From NCBI RefSeq assembly GCF_006345805.1, contig NC_042998.1, positions 150,598,001 to 150,662,000 on the forward strand: a DNA stretch of 64,000 bases. Direction: 5' to 3'. A model generated the notes under the pieces. It worked only from the letters and a program-made list of their open reading frames with translations. It was not told the origin of the DNA and searched no databases. Position numbers and translations under genes: made by a program. Origin of the DNA: Octopus sinensis (lineage: Eukaryota). Each line of letters begins with the position of its first letter. Positions within the stretch are counted from its first letter, which is position 1. Positions 11,515 to 47,757 of the stretch are shown in pieces.

Positions 11515-12619
11515 GTTCGGAGAGTTTATACCGAACTTTAATATAATGATCGTTACTCAAAGAACTCCAAACCCCATTAAATGAAAACTTCCTAGATAAA
11601 AGACAATGTTTTGCTTATCAGCGTCACCAGTGCAGCAACAAGACCATCACTTCGTATGTTACCGCTACTACAACAGCAACTGCTCCTATGAACGAGCACG
11701 CTGCCTGGTATCTCCATCAAGTACCATCCCCTCCAGCTTCTCTTATTATCTTCACTGTGTCTGATCCTCGTAAAACCATCAGTGTGTGAGGTTAAAACCT
11801 ACAGTGCATGGATTTTTCTAAGACAAAGTACTTTCGCCAGATGTGAACCACATGCCTCAGTACTTGGGCCAAAACACTGATTCTCTGCACCTGATATGAT
11901 GCCGCAGAAACATGATTTTTATTTTTCCGCAACAGTAACCATAGCAACGCCGTTCTACCATGCTTGGTTCTGTCATGCAGTACGTTTAGTCTGATATCTT
12001 AGCTTATTGCGGTAGAGGATGTAAAACTATTTGAAGTTACATATTGTTGTTGTTGTTAGGAATAATGACTATGGTATGGAACGGCTGTGTGAGGGTGGGG
12101 CTTGTCAAAAACTTCGAGTAGGGTCAGGGGAGTAAAGATCTATCATTTATTTATTTATTGTGTAGTTGAGTCTGTTATATGGCAGGATGAGTAAAACGGC
12201 AGGCAAAAGTAATTTCGCAGCTTTACATTCTGAGTTCGAATTTTGTTGATGCTTTCCCTATATAAAGCGACCTTCAAGTAATATATACATACATACATAC
12301 ATATATATATACATACATATACGAATTCGACTAAGTGAAATCATGTAAGATAGCAATAAATCCTCCCCAAAAATTATATCAAATATATATGGCGGTGAAT
12401 AAGCAGTGTCGTTAGAATGTCATACATTCTCATACCTTGCGTTCTGAATTCGAATCCCACCGACGTTGACTTTGCCTATCCCCTCTAGAGCGGTGGATTA
12501 GAAAACACTCTTAGGCGACTGAGGTTTGTGAATATATAATTTTTAAGTGCAAATTCATAAGAAATGTTACCAAGAATTTTCTAGTTCACCGCCCTAATGA
12601 TTATAATGATGAACATAAA

Positions 12620-12678
<59 letters not shown>

Positions 12679-12804
12679 GCTGTGTCGCATCTGCAATAGA
12701 CTTGCTCAAAACCACCACAAGTTGTTGCGGCATGATTAGATAGCGAAAGTGCTACATTAGAAACTATGCGAAAAGTGGGAGGCAGAGAGAGGCAAGAGGT
12801 GGTA

Positions 12805-14072
12805 CGAGGGGCGTTCAATAAGTAATGCCCCTGACCCACTTCCCATGGCAGTAGAGCAACGAAACTTGGCACAGTTATTAGTCTTTTTTTTACATAGGAA
12901 CCACTCAGAGTAACGCATTTCTCCCATCGTTTGATGCATCTCTGGAGATGGTTTTTGTAGAAGACCCCAGTTTGGTCCTCCAACCACGACGTGACTTCAG
13001 AAATCAAGGCTGCATCATCTGGGAAACGATTTCCTTTCAAAAACAACTTCATGGCTGGGAAGAGGTGAAAATCAGAGGGTGCAAGGTCAGGAGAGTAGGG
13101 GGGATGGGGAGGAGTTCATAGCCGCATGCCTGTGCTTCTGATCTGGCGACACGCGAATTGTGGACCGGAGCGTTGTCTTGCAGGAGGAGGATGCTTTGCT
13201 AATCTTGCCCCGCCTCTTGATTTTGATCGCTTCTCTTAATTTCTTCAAAAGTGAAGCATAATAGGCTCCTGTAATCCAGGAAATCTGTCATCACTACTCC
13301 GTCCTGGTCCCAGAAGACTGTGAGCATGACCTTGCCAGCGGAGGGCTGCACCCTTGCCTTCTTTGGAGGAGGTGAGTCACGGTGCTTCCACTGCATTGAC
13401 TGGGCTTTGGTCTCTGGATCATAGTGATGGACCCAGGTTTCATCCTGTGTAATCAGTCTTCTGAAAAATTTTGACTCATCTTCTTGGCACATCTCCAAAT
13501 TCATCCTCGAGCACTCGACGCGTTCTTGCTTCTGGAAAGGTGTGAGCAACCTGGGAATCCATCTGGCAGACACCTTTTGCATATGCAAATGGTCATGAAT
13601 GATAGTTTCCAAAGACCCGGTACTAATCTTGACCCCATGGGCTATTTGGCGGATAGTTATGCGTCGATTTTCCAAAATGGCAGCCTCAACTTGACGGACA
13701 GATGCTTCATCAATGGCAGAAGGGGGCGACCAGATCTGGGAGCTGTTTCCACAGAGTTCCGACCATGTTTGAATTCACGATGCCAGCGTTTTACAAGGTC
13801 ATATGATGGGGCATCATCACCATAAGTTACTTTCATTTCATCAAAAGTCTCCCGTGGTGTGCGTACTTTCAAATACAAAAACCGGATCACTGCTCGACAC
13901 TCAACTGGCTCCATTTCACACTTGACTCTGTTCAAACACCTGTAAATCAGAAACCACAGAGCTGTAATTTGCCACTTAATCTATAGAGATATAAATAATT
14001 GCACATGCAAAATTTCAGCTAGATCAAACAATTGCAAGTGGGTTAGGAGCATTACTTATTGAACGTCCCTCG
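12805..14072 (-). mobile_element. Full-length mariner (DD34D) DNA transposon, inactive
   Basis: 37-bp TIRs (12805-12841 and 14036-14072, 3 mismatches) and TA TSD (12803-12804, 14073-14074). Transposase motifs WIPRLL, ITQDETW, QDNAPVH and YSPDLAPSDFHLF are spread over several frames. Confidence 0.95.
12880..13914 (-). pseudogene. Mariner transposase, frameshifted
   Basis: ORF pieces 13657-13935, 13199-13675 and 12594-13052 join into a mariner transposase with HTH and DD34D domains. Confidence 0.9.
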
Positions 14073-14699: not shown

Positions 14700-15970
14700 G
14701 GATGAAACCAAGAAAGTTCTCGGGAATTCACAATAAGGTCCTGTAAAGAAAACAAGAAATCAAGGGTCACTACTCTTGGATGACACCTGTTGAGTGATTC
14801 TCTCTCTTGGGTTTGACTTTTTGGGTTAAAATCTGCTGGATGAGGAATTTGTTCCCATTATGTTATTTTATATTCTGGGTATGTCTAATGTTCGTATGAT
14901 TGTGTGTTAAGGGATTTCATCAGTGGACGTGTCTTCTATGTGTGGAGATCGTTTGTGGTATATACTCAATGTTCACGTTCAGGGAAAGAAACTATTCTGG
15001 TGGGATCGACGGAGTAGGTGGTGGTTCCTCTTTGAAATGCTGTAGTGTAAAATATTGCTTGTGTATGCAGAGAGTGGTTTCATCCCTGATGTTTATGATA
15101 TTATCTTTTGACAATATGATGTTTAGCTTTTTAGTAATACAAAGCTCGCATTTGGTGCCCTATCCCCTGTATTTTCTGACTTTAGTAATAAAGCTCCATG
15201 TTATCTGGGAATTGCTTACTCTTCATTCTTTCAATATTCATATCATATTGAATAGCGATGTCACATGTCTTTATTTTTGTTCCTGAATGACGCCAGATGT
15301 TGTGTGTATCTTCCCTTGAACGAGTTGCCCGTCATCCCGATATATGTCTTTGCTACTCCGATTTTGGTTTTGTTTATAAGTTCTTTTCCCAGACAGCCGT
15401 AAATCCATATTAGATAATATCATATGATATATCAGAGCATATTCAAACTTTACTCAATGGATATGTATTACTGAAATTATTGAATGGTTTAAGAAAATAG
15501 AAGATAAACCCAAATGCAAATTTATCCAATTTGACATCGTTGAGTTTTACCCCTCGATCTCCAAAAACTTGCTTCAAAAAGCACTTGAATTTGGTAAGGC
15601 ATATGTTACCATAACAAACGTTGATATAAATATAATTATGAACGCAAGGAAGTCGTTACTTTTTCCTAATAGTTCCTACTGGGTAAAAAAGAATGAGAAT
15701 AAGCTATTTCATGTGGCAACCGGGAACTATAATGGTGCAGAGATAGCTGACCTAGTTATCCTTAGAAAAGAAATAAAAGAAGCCAATATGGATTTATATA
15801 AGAACGATAGCCTGGAAGTGGTATACAATAAAAACGGACACGATATGGATAGGATACGGGGAAAATTATGCAAAAGATTTAACCAATTAGGTCGAAGAAC
15901 ACAATTAATACCAACGTGATAGAAGTCAATTTTCTAGAAATGAACATGAAAATAAGAACAGGTAAATTTA
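14700..15970. mobile_element. Penelope-like element with inverted 5' RT segment
   Basis: Minus strand ~15400-15050: KTYIGMTGNSFKGRYTQHLASFRNK...KCELCITKKL...CIHK (GIY-YIG). Plus strand ~15410-15970: FIQFDIVEFYPSIS, VATGNYNGAEIADLV, LYKND (RT). Confidence 0.8.
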
Positions 15971-19885: not shown

Positions 19886-21815
19886 ACCACACTAACTTTG
19901 AACAGTGACAATGAATCTCTAAATGCTGGTGATGTAAAAATTCATGTGGCATTTTCCTCTCTCAAAACTGCTCAATGATGCGCAGTACGGATATAAAATG
20001 TTTGATAAAAATATAAATCATCTCATTTACATGGATGATTTAAAGCTCTTTGCAAAAAATGACCAACAACTCAAGGGCTTACTAGCGATTGTCAAACAAT
20101 TCAGTGATGACATCAGAATGCAATTTGGCCTCGATAAATGCGCAAAAGCTACCTTTATCAAAGGAAAAATGACAGAAACATCTAATGTTAACCTTGACCA
20201 GCAGAATGTCATAAAAGAATTAGACCCAGCAGAGAACTACAAGTATCTAGGGATAATTGAAGGAGAAGGAATAAGGCATTCAGAGATGAAGGAAAGGATC
20301 AGGAGAGAATGCTATCGCAGAGTAAGAGCAATACTCAAGACAGAGCTGAATGCGAGAAACAGGATCGAAGCGATCAATGCATTAGCCATACCAGTCGTGA
20401 CTTACAGTTTCAGTATCGTTAACTGGTCAATCACTGAAATATGTAATCTTGACAGAAAAATACGAAAACTGTTGACAATGCATAGAATGCACCACCCTAA
20501 GGCAGATACAGAACGACTTTATCTGCCAAGAAAAGAGGGAGGCCGTGGACTTTTACAACTGGCAATAACAATGAAGATTGCTACAATTGGCCTAGACACC
20601 TACCTGAAAAACTCTGAGGACTGGATGTTAAAACTTGTCTCAAAACATGAAAACAAGAAAGCATCATACTCAGTAACAAAACAAGCAAAGGAATATCTAA
20701 GTGAATTCCGAATACAACAAATTTCGGAATTAGAGATAGACATACAAGAAACAGGCACAGAAAAAGCTAGGCGCATGAAAACCCGTGCTAAATCTGCGGC
20801 CTTAGATATTCTGAATGATAAATGGCAAGAAAAACCTCTCTATGGCAAATACCCAAAGAGAGCAAATAATGCAGATGTTGACAAAGCCCTGACCCATCAA
20901 TGGCTAATGGCCTCTGGCTTAAAATCTGAAACAGAGGGGTTTATCATAGCAGCTCAAGATCAATGCCTACCAACAAGAAACTACCAGGCCAACATATTAA
21001 AGATCAGAAGCAGTCCAACGTGTCGTATATGCAAGCAACAAAATGAAACCATTGACCATGTGGTCTCCAAGTGCAGTCTTCTAGCGCCTACAGAATATCT
21101 CAACAGGCACGATAGAGCTGCACAATATATTCACTGGGTAATCTGTAAAAACCTGGATTTGCCCCATGAAAAAAACTGGTGGGAACACAAACCACCCCCA
21201 GTGCTTGAAAATGACCACATTTCACTCCTCTGGAACTTCGCCATTCAAACTGACAGAAAGATAGATGCAAATAGGCCAAGACATCATATTGAAAGACTTC
21301 AAACAAAGAACATGCCTCCTCATTGATATGACTGTCCCAATCGATATAAACGTATCTGTCAAGACCTACCAAAAACTGAGCAAATATAAAGATCTTGAAA
21401 TAGAAATCAGCAAAATGTGGAAGCTGAAGACTAAAACAATACCTGTTGTCATAGGTGCCCTGGGAATGATAGCAAAAGGGGCAGATAGCTACGTAACTCA
21501 GATACCAGGAAACCCAAAAATGGCAGAAATTCAAAAGATAGTGCTCATGGGAACTGCTCATATCCTACGCAAAATACTTTCTATGTAATCTCAAGGTTTA
21601 AAACAAACATAAGTTTCGGTTTAAAAAAAAAAAAAAAAAATTTTTTTTTAGACATTCATTAGTACAACACCCCACCCCCCAAATATATGGCACACCAGGC
21701 ATAACAACAACATGAACTTCCAACCCTGTTGTCTCTTGAGGTCTCTGGGTGAGACTTGGAGCCAACTTGTACAAATATAAAGCAAAAGTCAAACATAGAA
21801 TAATAATAATAATAA
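19886..21815 (+). mobile_element. R4/Dong-type non-LTR retrotransposon (RT + CCHC + RLE), 5'-truncated
   Basis: YMDD (20028-20039), YKYLG, RLYLPRKEGGRGL, CRICKQQNETIDHVVSKC zinc knuckle, NRP/DI..LIDMTVP..K..KY.DL RLE domain. One frameshift near 21275. 3'UTR ends in (TAA)n and the 5' end abuts (TAA)n. Confidence 0.95.
19944..21588 (+). pseudogene. R4/Dong RT-RLE ORF remnant (460 aa + 107 aa)
   Basis: ORFs 19944-21326 and 21265-21588. The RT QGD motif is deleted at the 5' end (CGIF is joined directly to PLSKLL). Confidence 0.9.
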
Positions 21816-25648: not shown

Positions 25649-28270
25649 TATATATCATATATACGTATAGATACATACACATATAAACACACATATACAT
25701 ACACAGGCACACATGCACACATATATAAATACACATGCATATACATACAGGAACACTTACATACATAGATGCATATACATATTTGGAAAGCGAAGTTGTG
25801 AAGGGAACGCAGTCATTTAAAAATGCCGTTGAGAAAACAGTCGTCATGGGACGAGGGAAGAAGAGAAGGTATCGAGGAAGAAAGAGGGAACGAAAGAACG
25901 AAAATTAAAGGAGAGAGAGAGGTACGAGCAAACAGAGAATAGATGATAGATAGAAAGAAAGATAAAGGGGAGAACAGAGAGTATGGGAAGTAAGAATAAA
26001 GAATAGATAAGTTGCAAAAATGATTATTAGGTGAGGGTAGATATTTAAGAAAGGCAAAACAGCGTTTTTTTCCAATGCAAACACCTGTAAATACGTTCAT
26101 TAAAAGTGTTTACCAGTTTATGCTTAGAAAAGAGAATAGGTAGTTGTTCGTCCGTACAAAGAGGACAGAAAGATTTCCCTTTATCATGTGGAAATAATCT
26201 TGATAAAATTTTCCAGAAAAACGTTTATTAGAGTCTTTAAGGTGCCAAATTAGCTTACTAAGTCCTGTAAAATTACGCATATGACTGCATTTAAAAGTGA
26301 AAACATAGTTCTTGATACGGCTTTTCAACTCCGTAGACAATCCAATATAAAAGAATTCTGTAGATCCAGAGGTAATTTTGCATTGGTAAACAACATTTTT
26401 AATACTGCAATTGAGGACGCAAGTTTTATTCGAGCCACAGTTACAAAGACTAATATCATTGATATTATTATTCAAGGAGAGATTATAGTTAATATTATTA
26501 ATGTTATTACAGTTATTAAGAAATACTCTATTACCTTTGAGAATATAGTTGTTATGCAAGGATATAATCTGCAGGAGGTTGCTGGTGCTGGAGAAGCAAA
26601 TTCTGATAGGGTGGGTGTTGTAAATTGAGTGGTAACTGGAATTTATGGGAAATTTCTTTCGATAGCTTTATGAAATGGGCGGGCAAAGTTACTTTTAACT
26701 TGTTTTCCGCATGGAACAATCAACTAGATATTTTTACCAGGGTTACGCGATTTATGGAAAAATTTATTATTAAAAAACTTAATGTCTTTTTTAAAGAACG
26801 GAAAAAAAGAGTGGGGAATGATAGTTACGTCCCTTTGACTATTTGTTTTTAAAATTCCGATGGTAACGACTAAGGCTGTTATGATGTAATGGGATATTAT
26901 TCGGATTATTGTCTACGAGAGGAACGATGTGCGTATTTTTGTTGTCATTTTGTCTGTTACTATTAATATTATTACTACTATTATTGTTAGTAGTATTATT
27001 ACTGTTATGATTAGAGGAAGAGTTAAGGACAAGATGGTTATAATACTTAATTTATTTCTTATATCCTGTTTTATATAACGCTGAATTATAGAAATCAGAG
27101 TTATTATTGAAAATGGTTTCATTGGCAGATGATTTAGAGATTCAAAGCGATATGTTTTTAACTAATTTGTTTGTTATATTGGTAGGGTGATACCTAAAAA
27201 GGCTGATGTATTTCAGGTTAGTTGAAGGTTTATGATATGGGAAATATGAGGCCGTATTTAAGTTGAGAGTAAGATCAAGGAAGTTAACCTTAGTTCTATC
27301 ATCATTCTATCTTAGTTCTATAATCATATGGGCCTAATACTTAGGCCCATATTACTAAAGAATTTGACAATTTTGCGTTTAACCTTTTAACGTTTTTGAT
27401 TAGAGATATTTTGGAGGTAAAGGGAAAAGTCGTCGCGATATAAACTACCGAGTATATATAGAAATTGGCTATCCATTTCTGATAAAATATAAATACCTAC
27501 CAAATCAGCTATTTGTGCGGAATCGCTACAACCCATAGGGATATCAAAGCAGTAGGGTCGATCTTTATGAAGCCAAAATTTGTTATCAAGTTGGATAATA
27601 GATTTTTTAGTTGCTATAACAACATTAATTTCATCCCGGGTGAGGCTGGCTTTATTATGCGTGAACCATAGGGCTTTATTAAGGTTGATGTGATTGATAG
27701 AGGAATAATAACTATAGATATTGAACTGAATAAATTTAGTGTTTAGTTTATTATCGATAGAGTTGTGAACCAGTCCACAACCTGGAACGAGTTAAACCAT
27801 AAATTAAGTTTAAGTATTTTCGTTAACGAAGGAATGTACTTATCAAGAATATTTTTGCTAAGTATACCGATATCCGAGCTGGAGGGGCAGATAAGACGGA
27901 GAGTTGGATTATTGAAGAAGCTAGGTTTGTGATCCGTTAAGACAAAATGGAGTTGCTTTGGAGATAAAGGCTCAGTTTTCATTTGCAAGTTATATTTTTC
28001 CATAATTTTCTCAGCTTCTAGGTTAGCCTTTCTGATAGCATTTTTACTAGTAGCCATGTATATTTTTTGTATTTCCTTCCTGAGTAGCTTTAAGTAAGAA
28101 TCTGTGTTTAAATGATACAGGTTACCAGTTTTATCCGATTGAACAAGGATGCCTTCCATGCTGTTTATTTCTTTGGTAATATTACGTAGATATCTCAGAT
28201 ATCTATTTCTTAAGGGTGAACGATGGAATTTAACATTCTTAACAATAAACGGGAGGTCCTCTTCAAACTG
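25390..28270 (-). mobile_element. Penelope-like element (YRDD RT, CxCx5C linker, GIY-YIG), degenerate
   Basis: SDKTGNLY, DHKPSFFNNPTLRLICP, FDIPMGCSDSAQIADLVGIYIL, YRDD (27429-27440), CNCGSNKTC, VVYQCKI..FFYIGLS. A decayed HHR lies in the 3' pLTR at ~25448-25537. Confidence 0.9.
25448..25537 (-). ncRNA. Decayed hammerhead motif in PLE pLTR
   Basis: CUGAUAA (C3.A8 mismatch), long helix II (GAUGCAUU/AAUGCAUC), GAAAC-AUAA-GUC. Helix I is broken. Homologous to 41475-41560. Confidence 0.55.
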
Positions 28271-28462
28271 TGCACACACACACAAATATTTTAGAATGGT
28301 AATTTTTATTTCCAAATTAATCACAATGCACTATGCACTCGTTCTTCATTATTCTTCTTCTTCTTAATTATTCTTCTTAGTTTAGTGTCCTTTGTTTGAG
28401 ATCTTTCATCCCACATCCTATGATTTCTTTAGCGACTCTTCATTCCACGTGTCTTGTTTTCT

Positions 28463-34640: not shown

Positions 34641-35745
34641 TATATATATATATTTTGTATGTATGTATGTATGTATGTATGTATGTATGTATGTATGTAT
34701 GTATGTATGCATGTATGTATGTATGTATGCATGTATGTATGTAAGTATGTATGTATATGTATATATATATACATATATATGTATGTGTGTGTATGTATGT
34801 ATATGTGTATGTGCGTGAGTGTGTATGTATATATGCACACATATATATATCATTCTCATCCTCTTTCCCCCTTTTTCTCTCGCTTTCTTTCTCTCTGTCT
34901 GTCCCTGACTCAGCCTGTTTCTCTGTCTCTCTTTCTCTCTCTCTCTCTTTGTCTCGTTAGTTAGTATCGGTAGTCTTCACAGTCTATCTCGACAATGTGC
35001 TCCAGCATTTCACACCAAAAGTGCCGCTGCTAGATTCTGCCTACAGTATGGTGGCGGGCATACAGTAAGTGACCACAATACGATCGACAGAATGAATTCT
35101 TTGCCTGAATACTAGTCTTGTCAGCAATCGTTCCAGGTGATGCCTAAGGCAACAAGTAGGTGACTGGAAGCCCTGTCAGATATGTGAGCAAAAATGTGAA
35201 GCGACATCGCTGAAAGAGGGACATGAAGTGGGGCTGGGTAGGAACAAGGAGGAGTGGGCCCGGTATATGTCACTTGAAGAAACGCCAGTGTTTCTTAAAA
35301 TAACAAATACCAGGCACACCACCACTCAAATATTGACGAGAATTTTTGCTCTCTCCTTCCCACTCTTTATCAATGAATCTGCGTCTAATATGCAAATTCT
35401 TTCTTCACCATGATGCTGGGTAAGTTTTAAAATATTCAGAAACCATTTTAGTTTAATTAAACTTAGCAATTTTCCCGTCCCCTTTTCAGTTTCATATCAG
35501 TTCCTCGTTTCATAAGCCTCCACACATACACACACACCTACTTTTACTTGTACTTGTTTCAGTCATTTGACTGTAGCCATGATGGAGCACCGCCTTTAGT
35601 CAGAAAAATCTACCCCAGGACTTATTCTTTGTCAGCCTAGAACTTATTCTATCGGTCTCTTTTGCCGAACCGCTAAGTTATGGTGACGTAAACACACCAG
35701 CATCGGTTGTCAAGCGATGTTGGTAGTACAAACAGACACACAAAC

Positions 35746-35786
<41 letters not shown>

Positions 35787-35985
35787 ACACACACACACAT
35801 ATGTATATATATAACATAAGAGGGATCAGCCATCTGAATGTGGCTAGGGTCAGGGCGGGGTGGTGGGGGTGTTACTGATGCATTTAGCCCAGGCCGAACA
35901 TCGACGTCACCAGAAGAGCTGACACCATCTCGGTGTCCTTGCCAGCCAGCAAAGGAGATCAGCCTCCCCGAAGATACGGATACTA

Positions 35986-36028
35986 CACACGGACCGGTTT
36001 CGAGGTTATTGCCTCTTGTCAACGTATG
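35986..36028 (-). ncRNA. Minimal type I hammerhead ribozyme, U3-A8 core variant (copy 1)
   Basis: CAUACG UUGACAA GAGG-caauaa-CCUC GAAA CCGG UC/ CGUGUG: 6-bp helix I (one G-U), perfect 4-bp helix II, palindromic CCGG replacing helix III, GUC cleavage site. Confidence 0.8.
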
Positions 36029-36343
36029 GTAAGCACCGCTCTTCGTTGAGGGACTTCCTCTACCGGCTGGATATATATAGATTTTCACAGTAAACAGTCA
36101 CTGGCGTAGAAAATCTGTTCGAAAACAATAATAAATCTCTGGGCGAGATATAAACAGTAACTGCTCTATAACATAAGAGGGATCAGCCATCTGAATGTGG
36201 CTAGGTCAGGGCGGGGTGGTAGGGGGTGTTACTGATGCATTTAGCCCCAGGCGAACATCGACGTCACCAGAAGAGCTGACACCATCTCGGTGTCCTTGCC
36301 AGCCAGCAAAGGGAGATCAGCCTCCCCGAAGATACGGATACTA

Positions 36344-36386
36344 CACACGGACCGGTTTCGAGGTTATTGCATCTTGTCAACGTATG
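36344..36386 (-). ncRNA. Minimal type I hammerhead ribozyme, U3-A8 core variant (copy 2)
   Basis: Same as copy 1 except helix II 5' arm GAUG (one mismatch). Confidence 0.75.
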
Positions 36387-36460
36387 GTAAGCAACCGCTC
36401 TTCGTTGAGGGACTTCCTCGCCCCAGATTTATTATTATATATATATTATATATATATATA

Positions 36461-36506
<46 letters not shown>

Positions 36507-36545
36507 CATATATATATATAAATATATATATATATACACACATAT

Positions 36546-36616
<71 letters not shown>

Positions 36617-37764
36617 GTATATACGACGGGTTTCTTTCAGTTTCCGTCTACCAAATCTACTCGCAAGGCTTTGGCTGGTCCGAGGCTATAGTAGAACTCA
36701 CATGTCCAGGGTGCTACGCAGTGGGACTGAACTCGGGAACCATGTAGTTCGTAAACAAGTTACTTGCCACACAGCCACTCCTACGCCTACTTTATAAAAA
36801 TTTTGGCGTGAGATAAATTCAGTTTTAAAATGTCGATCAACCCGATGAAGAATTAGGTGAACTGCCTTGCAAAGCGATTTATATCTACCAGCGTTGAAAT
36901 AATCCAGCTTGTACAAACCTGTGCAAATTTCGAACAAGGTCTCCACGAAAACCTTCACTTAAAAGAGTTAATAGGGGTAGGCCATTGGTGTATAGTAGCT
37001 GTTCTGCAGGACCGTCTTCAGGTGCTGAATGGATACTTTTTACAAAGACACATGTTCAAGGGGGTCTAACGAAATAAATATTTATCGGAGCCGTTTAACA
37101 TTGTGGCTTTGCTCGGTAAAGATGTAAATTGTCACAACTTTTGTACCTGTTGGCTGTCGAATATCATTAATAAAAATTTAGTATTTTGAGGGTAAGCCTA
37201 CCTCAAATTGAAACAGAAATCTGATATCAGTACATGGTTCATTACCTCTCCAAAACTAATGTATTACAGGACACGGAAGAAAAATATCCCGTAGTTTACA
37301 CGACCAGTAATGTAGTGCTCGTAAAGTTAGGCAAGTATTAGTGGTATATTCATGTAGCTAATGTCTGATCGCTTTTTTTTTTACAATCCCCATCTTGGTT
37401 TGAACTGGATCATACGGCGCGCTCGCTATTACTACGTTTATCAAGAATGTTAAAGCCGAGGGTTTGTTTCTTTTTGTCACACCCTGTGTAATATGTGCAT
37501 TCAGGTTGAGAAATAAAATACCATTTGATGGCTGAGACGAGGTGCCAAATGCGATTTGGACCGAATTTTTACTTTCTGAGGGAAATGATTGTAACGACAT
37601 TGACGTTGAACTGTTTTGGTCCCTGCCTTCTTGGACAACATCAAGGGTGGGACCATGGACATTTGCTGGTCTCCAATGAGAAATAATTGGCCAGAGTGGC
37701 ACCTTGAAGTGGAACTTTCATGAGACATAGAGAGGCTTCGGATATATATGTTTGTGTGGATGGA

Positions 37765-38828: not shown

Positions 38829-39911
38829 TGTGTGTGTGTGCGCGCGCGCGTGTATGCATCAATGTACGTATGTATGCATGCATGTGTACACACGCACATA
38901 TTTATATACATGCATATATGTTTGTTGTGTGTGTGTGTGTATGTGTGTATGTGTGTGTGTGTGCGTGCGTGTGTGTGTATTTATATATATATATATATAT
39001 ATATATGGAGTTAAACACAGGTGATATTCAAATCTTTTAACTTCCGAAATATGGTTCAAAGAAAACATTGGTATTATTCCAGAAGAAATATAATTGTGTA
39101 AAACAATGCAATCTTTCAGTAATCACTCAAAGAATTTAGTTAGGAATATTTCACTTAGACTTTCTTGATTATCTGCTAATCAACGATAAAACTGAATGTT
39201 ATAACTCTGCCTTTTTTAAAACAGGCTATAAAGAAAAAATTACCTATATTAACTCTATTGACATTAATTCTACCTCTTATTAATCAGGACATGAAATTAA
39301 GTTATAACGATATTAACAATTTCAATTTTATTTCGAATAACAACACCAAATCGAGTAATGTAATTCTGCAGCGTAATTATTTAAGACCCCTTTTTTTTTT
39401 AATTATAAAGGTACATCGAGGACTATTAAGGATAAGTACTCTAATAACAAGGTATGTCCTAGCAAAACTGTTTGGTTAATAATTCAATATGGTAAGCAGA
39501 TCAAATCCAACCTCCCTTGCCAGTTTCGTGAAGCTATAGAAAAGAATTTCCCAAGAAATTCAAGATACTATTCGGTTATTAATTCACACCGAATTAGGAT
39601 AGGTTTTTCTAACAAAAAGAATCTTTCACAAATCATCTCTTCGCATAATAAGTTGTTAAATACAAATCCACTCAATGAAAATAGTAACATTGATATTGTT
39701 AACACTAACTATTATTTAAATAAGAATAGTAGTCGTCTTAGTGTTTATGATGTTGATTCCAATCACATTCGTTTCTTTAGCAGTAATTCTAAGATAGAAA
39801 CTCTATTTATCAATGTAAAATTACTTCTAGTACTTCATCTCAGTTGTCCAAAAGAATATCTAATCTTTACTCTACATTTAGACATATCAATAAACGTAAC
39901 AATACTGGGAT

Positions 39912-40957
39912 TTTTAAAATTTTATTTTATTTATTTTATTTTATCTAGTTTCAGCTCACGAGCTGTGGCCATGCTGGGGCACCGCCATTCGGTGTTGCTA
40001 CATGATTTTACTTCACGAATGCTTTTTAGCAATTGCCATTTGGTGCATGAGAGAGTTCGATGCAGCTGCCCTCATCTGCACCTCCTGCCGTGAAGTTGGT
40101 GCATCTGGGACACCTGACAGGAAGAGATCCAGTTTTATTTTAAAGACATCTGCATCCACCCCATGCAGGTCTCTCAGGTCCTTCGGGAGGATATTGAAGA
40201 GCTGTGAACCTCTGAAGCCCAGGCTATCACAGTATCTTGTCCTACATCTTGATGGCAAATTTGGAGTCCTTGGCACTATGCAGTGGCACCCAGTTCTAGT
40301 ATTTGTGTAACTCTCGATGCCAAAGTTTGGGACAAGTCCTTCCAGGATCTTCCAGATATATATTATGGCATATCTTTCTCGCCTACGCTCCAAGGAATAG
40401 AGTCTTAATCTCTTGAGTCTTTCCCAATAGCATATATGCTGCACAGAGGCTATCTTCGTGTAGCTTCGTTGGATCGCCTCAAGTTCTGTGATTAACTTGA
40501 CACTGGATGGTGACCATAGCTGAGAGCAATAGTCAAAGTGGCTTAGGACAAGTGTCCTCCAGAGGACCATCATGGTTTCCTGGTCTCTTGTTCTAAAGGT
40601 TCTAAGAATCCATCCGGTCAGCCGCCTACATTTCATTGCCAATTTAGCAACATGCACATGAAAGGTTGCATCATTACTTATGTAAATACCCAGGTCACGC
40701 ACTGATTGTGCCTCTGGGATTGCAATCCCTCCAGGTCCAGTGTATTTATTGGGCATTGCATTTAGTTTTGCATGCTGATAGCATAAAGCTTGAAACTTGC
40801 TATTCTTTTCAGCCCACTTGTATATTTTGTCCAGCTCACATTGCAGGTGCATAGTGTCTTCAGGGTTCTGTATTGCCTGTGAAACTTTTGTATCATCTGC
40901 ATTACCTGGGATCGTTGCTCTCTGCGTGGCTGAGGGCATGTCTGAAAGGGCCATAAT
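39912..40957 (-). mobile_element. CR1-group LINE, 5'-truncated (RT C-terminus, 3'UTR, (TAAAA)n tail)
   Basis: 313-aa ORF 40013-40954 with ADDTK, RDLGI, DYCSQLWSP, LEAIQRSYTK, LYSLERRRER. The TTTTA repeat at ~39920-39945 is the tail. Confidence 0.85.
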
Positions 40958-41474
40958 TGGTAAATTAATTTGATATATAAAGGATCATAATAAACAATTT
41001 GATTTGGAATGGAATATTTTATCTATATCTTTTCTGTATGATGAAGGTAAATCTTTTTGTTCGCTTTGTAACAGTAAAATGTACTTTATCATGTTCTCAG
41101 GGAATCCCTTTGCAAACACGTTTATAGAACGCGTTTATAGTTGCAAACATTGGCAGAAACATACCTTTGGTTCCTATGAGTGATTTCTACCATTCTATAA
41201 AATTCGACATTTTACTGTCTTCTTACATTTCACTTCCACTAAATATATCTACTTCCAAGCCTTTAAGCATTATTCCTATTCACCTATCACTCTCTATCTC
41301 TTCACTATTAGTTTTCTGATAATTTCTTCCTTTCTCCTCTTTCTCTTCCTATAAACTACCTTTGACGTTTTATCTAATAACAGTTTTTTTTTAAACTTGC
41401 TAGCGTTCCCTTCATCATATACGCAGTCATCACATTCTGTAAAAATGTCTTATTGATGTGTTTGGTTACTTTCT

Positions 41475-47709: not shown

Positions 47710-47757
47710 TCTCCTCTGAGGAGCGGCTAACTAACCAGAAAACGGTCCCTCAGGAGA
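47710..47757 (+). ncRNA. Degenerate hammerhead-like motif
   Basis: UCUCCU CUGAGGA ...GAAA...UC/ AGGAGA: 6-bp helix I and canonical CUGAGGA, but helices II and III are eroded. Confidence 0.45.

Follow-up and report, generated by a model that had tools for sequence, protein, structure and literature searches.

The window analysed here is a 64,000-nucleotide stretch of the Octopus sinensis genome (NC_042998.1, positions 150,598,001 to 150,662,000, forward strand). Its minus strand carries two near-identical copies of one sequence, at 36419-36167 and 36060-35810, which agree at 248 of 255 aligned columns and are separated by one substitution and six single-base indels. Both copies read CAUACG, UUGACAA, helix II, GAAA, CCG, GUC and CGUGUG in that order, and the predicted cleavage-site cytidines lie at 36350 and 35992, 358 nt apart. 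An earlier note on this DNA had described a near-identical tandem pair of minus-strand hammerhead ribozymes with a UUGACAA core and no coding capacity, and all of this was borne out: the core is present in both hammerheads, and stops interrupt all six frames of the dimer. A single 139-aa stop-to-stop frame is found at the dimer, and it extends into the flanking microsatellite.

Read along the minus strand, the element is preceded by a (TA)n/(TG)n microsatellite (36437-36625), the likely insertion target. At the upstream edge of the element, 20 nt of the unit's own tail recur in inverted orientation (36417-36436, plus strand; approximately unit 272-293). This short arm, absent from the earlier note, is joined to the longer arm at a GAG microhomology; inspection of the locus placed the reverse complement of unit 269-298 next to the flank. 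The non-coding upstream unit (36063-36419, minus strand, unit positions 2-358) contains hammerhead 1 (36336-36396, minus strand), with its core at 36380-36374 and a predicted cut after 36350, and a tail of ~43 nt (36124-36166, minus strand). The downstream partial unit (35810-36062, minus strand, positions 1-254) contains hammerhead 2 (35978-36038, minus strand), with a predicted cut after 35992, and stops at position 254 in a TA run; a further (TA)/(TG)n microsatellite follows (35727-35809). The predicted cut-to-cut monomer of 358 nt (35992-36349, minus strand) is a candidate circle. The TATA-like run that had been noticed in the spacer, CTATATATAT, is present at 36080-36071 on the minus strand as a candidate promoter, but its sequence is not kept in other subfamilies of the element, and no pile-up of 5' ends was seen behind it among family copies.

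The repeat search of the window was dominated by microsatellites, and those at the element are flanked in turn by two very high-copy SINE-like repeats (35518-35739 and 36625-36790). Elsewhere in the window, three decayed frames (15428-15919, plus; 26110-28330, minus; 39377-40093, plus) resemble Naiad-type Penelope proteins in their motifs and gave no Pfam match. Fragments at 12594-13774 (minus), 19938-21326 (plus) and 40013-40984 (minus) resemble, by translation, what we take to be a mariner-type transposase and two LINE reverse transcriptases. A further hammerhead-like motif at 47710-47757 (plus), with a CUGAGGA core, a 6-bp helix I and a weak helix II, is probably a decayed copy of another family.

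The two hammerheads of the tandem are not equivalent. The sole substitution between the copies (T at 36371) affects helix II of the upstream hammerhead, which reads GAUG against CCUC with a U·C mismatch, so the GAGG/CCUC helix described earlier is correct for the downstream copy only. Helix II is lost from the predicted fold of the upstream copy (-10.3 versus -17.4 kcal/mol). Hammerhead 2 is intact, with a U3-A8 pair, a CAAUAA loop 2 and a palindromic CCGG. Helix I of the motif spans 6 bp and is extended, past an internal loop 1, by a second segment; helix II is 4 bp long and carries loop 2. Those dimensions bear directly on its classification. Canonical metazoan type I hammerheads are described as having a helix I of 6 bp, a helix II of 4 bp and a helix III of 1-2 bp with a palindromic loop; in minimal hammerheads helix I is short, helix II spans 7-8 bp and there is a bulge (PMC4209133). 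The minimal motif of Penelope elements (PLEs), which the earlier note had proposed, is bulged after position 9, its helix II measures 7-8 bp and its helix I 4-5 bp, and its loop 1 is poorly defined; at this locus helix II is 4 bp, there is no bulge, helix I is 6 bp, and loop 1 and helix Ib are conserved. That part of the proposal was consequently abandoned, also because the locus gave a full-length alignment to Rfam Hammerhead_HH9 (RF02275), sharing its UUACC loop 1 and six-nucleotide A-rich loop 2. The alignment (25.9 bits, E 0.00028) is below the gathering score of 52 and, unlike HH9, helix III here is only a palindrome.

The Rfam results also qualify a second claim, that the U3-A8 core is the reason standard tools miss the element. 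A scan of 6 kb returned 71 matches, none of them a hammerhead, and a narrower scan gave the sub-threshold HH9 alignment; a control scan of the locus of a C3-G8 sister returned no hammerhead match. The locus with the unusual core was thus weakly matched, and the one with the standard core was missed. A strict CUGANGA pattern does miss UUGACAA, by definition.

The structure is supported by covariation. Among 27 subfamily representatives, which were hand-picked across subfamilies and are related to one another, 97% of cells pair and both sides vary in 14 of 19 pairs; controls in which the alignment was slid gave at most four pairs with changes on both sides. Most rows were found by patterns that include the core and helix II, so the fair test is given by helices Ia, Ib and III, which lie outside those patterns; here five of six, three of four and two of four pairs covary, respectively. 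The covariation in helices I and II on which the earlier reading depended is present. The 3-8 pair is UA in 14 representatives, CG in eight, UG in three and something else in two. The palindrome of helix III is conserved among the family, and self-duplexes were predicted for all six variants examined (-8.6 to -12.5 kcal/mol), a hairpin for none. This supports cleavage as a dimer, as had been suggested, and as is described for salamander and PLE motifs (PMC7229834, PMC6765202). With a core containing a 3-8 pair, GAAA, an NUH cleavage site and three covarying helices (within the limits of hand-picked, related rows), the ribozyme is a canonical, loop-stabilised type I hammerhead with a palindromic helix III, for which cleavage is predicted.

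The unit belongs to a large family. A DNA search gave at least 125 BLAST matches, with 40 of 1709 candidates scored. An exact pattern for the core plus helix II (GAGG/CCUC, C at position 7) with U3-A8 matched the genome 375 times and its reversed control 0 times, so the motif is not a product of chance. The same pattern with C3 and either A or G at position 8 gave 838 matches; U·G cores gave 95 and C·A cores 33, leaving ~805 C-G cores by subtraction. Watson-Crick states thus make up 1180 of the 1308 matches with C at position 7; a further 212 matches carry another base at position 7, and U-A accounts for 89 of the first 100 among them. Hammerheads are spaced by 348-360 nt in 31 of 33 cases, with up to six per locus at ~353 nt, and copies that extend upstream enter the unit's own spacer. 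PLE protein matches occurred at eight of 120 family loci when nine ORF fragments from the window were used as queries, and none was continuous with the unit. The units are therefore non-coding tandems of a few hundred nucleotides, each with one type I hammerhead (one of the two at this locus carrying the helix II mismatch), dispersed in many copies that lack LTRs or an ORF of their own. The unit is a member of a dispersed non-coding superfamily that fits the animal non-LTR retrozymes, and the claim that it is non-autonomous and retrozyme-like is supported, no ORF being linked to it in the loci examined. The proposed search of the genome with the unit had asked whether U3-A8 is fixed: it is fixed in several subfamilies, but the superfamily as a whole also contains C-G, U·G and C·A cores.

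Several related sequences were encountered in these searches. A sister branch (L068:7430-7800, L095, L112, L118, L147), with C3-G8 and a UGGG/CCCA-type helix II, shares the tail. In contigs of sequencing run X16, the depth over the tail region greatly exceeds that over the remainder of the unit, which hints at many more copies. A further U3-A8 hammerhead family (L087:3644-3705, minus strand; L133; L161) has a UUGAAAA core, a GGUC/GACC helix II and a GUA site; it sits beside a copy of the retrozyme family and near a PLE fragment.

The extent of the family also bears on whether the tandem arose by local duplication of a decayed repeat, or in assembly, with U3-A8 itself a product of decay. Six of the seven positions at which the copies differ are single-base indels within runs, a pattern expected of sequencing error, and C7-G8 is a CpG, so a G8A change may come from decay. 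However, 23 of 84 insertion arms elsewhere contain at least two cut sites, contigs of the independent run X16 span the family's head-to-tail junction, and U3-A8 is fixed in several subfamilies; we regard an artefact or decay as highly improbable. The element is genuine and young; both its class and its core variant were already known, the latter appearing here in canonical and tandem form, and the function of the element is predicted.

The history of the 3-8 pair was examined on a tree of 34 chosen rows, built with positions 3 and 8 masked. This unrooted tree of 250 columns calls for seven or more changes among the four states, a count that recombination between subfamilies could inflate. Single clades were rejected for C-G (p-AU 9e-6), U-A (3e-84) and U·G (2e-5). 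One C·A group has a C-G group as its sister, within a clade that also contains the U-A subfamily of this locus. The U·G and C·A intermediates are multi-copy subfamilies, each with its own loop 2 sequences, which implies that mismatched intermediates have spread and that efficient cleavage may not be needed for copying. Private mutations showed no significant deficit in the core (1 seen against 3.7 expected, p 0.11), and single copies thus look neutral; a stronger contrast between the core and the rest was set aside, since the loci had been picked by core pattern.

These observations suggest that U3-A8 is a working substitute for C3-G8 that was gained or lost several times in the superfamily, with activity predicted from the sequences. 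The claim that the pair is compensatory and not decay is thereby supported by covariation. The variant itself is already in print (Perreault 2011, PMC3088659; Cervera 2014) and is not new. The same compensatory change is reported from nature, with ~1,300 hits in Schistosoma, and is described as active in vitro (Perreault 2011, PMC3088659; the Schistosoma Cercyon min-HHR, PMC4209133), the in vitro activity being cited by PMC3088659 from other work. As those sources describe them, the Schistosoma motifs are minimal, a bulge accompanying a long helix II while helix I is short, and most occur singly, unlike the canonical, tandem octopus motif.

The means by which the unit is copied was sought in the ends of its insertions. 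From 112 loci, some selected for near-full length (L001-L030) and others by core patterns (L031-L090), 10 overlapping duplicates were dropped, and 54 had enough sequence at ≥85% identity. Their 85 3' ends comprise 46 at unit 245-256, 36 at 290-304 and three elsewhere, so that 82 lie in two windows that define fixed ends ~43 nt apart, at unit ~254 and ~297, and bound the tail. TA runs adjoin 62 of the 85. Among 31 inverted loci, 29 have one end of each kind, two have an end at 254 with another point, and none has the same end twice. The copy in the window obeys the same rule, with a long arm to 254 and a short inverted arm to ~293.

Two fixed ends, one on each arm and mostly in (TA)n, constitute the signature of a Penelope two-start tail. 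The PLE protein is described as cutting both strands of AT-rich DNA, with reverse transcription from two internal sites that bound the tail (PMC11167929), and PLE tails as being 30-40 bp long and often present at one end only (PMC8557442). The octopus insertions share this anatomy with Poseidon PAc (PMC11167929) and with Naiad/Chlamys, including the non-autonomous MRC1 (PMC8557442): two internal starts bounding a tail, a tail at one end, 5' inversions and AT-rich targets. They differ from these elements, as described there, in having no ORF and a tail of ~43 nt, and no partner enzyme was identified among the PLEs sampled. The insertion ends, read from sequence, therefore point to Penelope as the likely source of mobilisation, as had been claimed.

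The locus could in principle be a pseudo-LTR, solo or in partial tandem, that remained when an ORF-bearing Penelope element was truncated at its 5' end: PLEs, too, show partial tandems, tails, 5' inversions and TA targets (PMC8557442). The genome does contain PLEs with TA-ended copies and open frames of 762-883 aa. One autonomous family (L128:2350-2400, L137, L142, L143, L150, L152), with ~780-aa frames encoding RT and GIY-YIG, carries a U3-A8 hammerhead of its own ~600-800 nt behind the ORF, with a UUGAUAA core, a CAUG palindrome and TA-run ends, so the variant core also occurs in an ORF-bearing PLE of the octopus. That hammerhead is, however, a different motif of the minimal type, and the units have no DNA match to the sampled PLE ends. 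Of 5029 GIY-YIG candidates, 150 were scored, and the 48 partly overlapping PLE loci drawn from these included no autonomous PLE that shares sequence with the unit. Matches to the unit beside PLE loci L157 and L147/L160 were considered as a partner link and rejected, as they are separate insertions set off by microsatellites. Extension of copies into their own spacer and loci with up to six hammerheads also argue against truncation. The attachment of copies to a PLE ORF, which the earlier note had asked to be checked, was continuous at none of the 120 family loci; as the queries came from the window, other PLE families are possible. A truncated autonomous element is therefore an unlikely origin, and the non-autonomous unit mobilised by a Penelope enzyme is the preferred reading.

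The arms also narrow down the probable template. Of the 84 with a fixed-point end, 61 run across the cut site and 41 are longer than one unit, so most insertions were not copied from a cut linear monomer. None of the 84 5' ends falls within 72±4, the cut site, which is weak on its own as ~2 would be expected by chance. At nine subfamily-diagnostic sites, copies within a locus disagreed in seven of 233 comparisons, versus 37% between loci, from which it follows that each insertion derives from one variant. The template was likely either a ligated circle or an uncut multimer; both fit, in nearly even balance with a slight lean to the circle. At -113.2 kcal/mol, the monomer in circular form folds more stably than all 100 shuffles (z -3.1), a result to which the hammerhead stems contribute. 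The 358-nt circle may be regarded as a candidate product, one of the two ribozymes at the locus being damaged. Were cleavage to proceed through a double-hammerhead fold, the cut at 35992 would be expected to depend on the damaged upstream core, and less monomer should be released from this locus.

An uncut template would allow the units to be non-autonomous Penelope derivatives copied from linear multimers, with the hammerhead loosely kept and no circle in the life cycle, an alternative that we consider possible, though well short of even. It explains arms that run through the cut site equally well, and mismatched-core subfamilies have spread. In vitro, ribozyme mutants are reported to have no effect on PLE insertion, with unprocessed RNA the main substrate (PMC11167929). 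However, long-term covariation of all helices and repeated returns to a Watson-Crick 3-8 pair imply selection for cleavage, the unit length is steady, and circles have been shown for the coral, mussel and axolotl retrozymes (PMC7229834).

Contigs from sequencing runs guessed to be RNA cover the unit and not the unique flanks of this locus; strand, ends and circles are not readable from contigs. The main contig piece in X5, X9 and X8 (corresponding to window 35847-36200) is the C3·A8 variant. One X9 contig continues ~600 nt past the element into unrelated sequence, as if a weakened copy lay inside a host transcript, and the neighbouring SINE-like repeats are covered far deeper than the unit in these runs.

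Tandem type I hammerhead repeats that yield circles have been described in animals (Cervera and de la Peña 2020, PMC7229834), and retrozymes have been linked to PLEs, with one of nine predicted Xenopus dimers cleaving (Li, Clavereau and Pollet 2026, bioRxiv 10.64898/2026.07.22.740005). As presented in these two sources, metazoan non-LTR retrozymes share with the octopus family non-coding tandem units (350-390 nt in mussel, 330/350 in axolotl), a canonical type I hammerhead in each unit, a weak palindromic helix III, dispersal as monomers to multimers and PLEs in the same genome. The octopus family differs in its U3-A8 core and four 3-8 states, and is known here from DNA, its expression and circles being predicted. 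Its PLE link comes from insertion ends, as against co-occurrence and pLTR phylogeny in those reports, in which the copying of animal retrozymes is so far proposed. A literature search that took in few subscription papers found nothing on the octopus family, a tail signature at retrozyme insertions or a four-state walk of the 3-8 pair, although supplements (e.g. of PMC4209133, PMC7229834 and the preprint) may list such variants.

The explanation that best accounts for these observations, and one that we hold to be probable, is that the locus arose by a single insertion of a non-LTR retrozyme, a dispersed and non-coding repeat of 358 nt, likely copied into a TA microsatellite by a PLE enzyme acting in trans. 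Arrays would be transcribed, and two hammerheads would pair through the palindromic helix III and cut. A PLE reverse transcriptase-endonuclease would then nick both strands of a TA run and reverse transcribe from unit ~254 and ~297 on one template, each arm being primed from one nicked strand, and the two cDNAs would join at a microhomology. A more specific proposal, which we advance tentatively as somewhat short of an even chance, is that a dimeric Penelope enzyme copies a single ribozyme circle of ~358 nt repeatedly from the two fixed starts, one per nicked strand, and that the 3-8 pair walks between C-G and U-A through U·G and C·A intermediates that are still able to spread.

As the tandem hammerhead and U3-A8 were already known, the useful parts of these observations are the fixed-end rule and the shifting 3-8 pair. 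The occurrence of one end of each kind links retrozymes mechanistically to PLE reverse transcriptase and names two start sites, and the four natural 3-8 states are matched variants with which to measure how much cleavage spreading requires. If the proposal is true, retrozyme mobilisation and the fitness of compensatory intermediates would be testable in one system.
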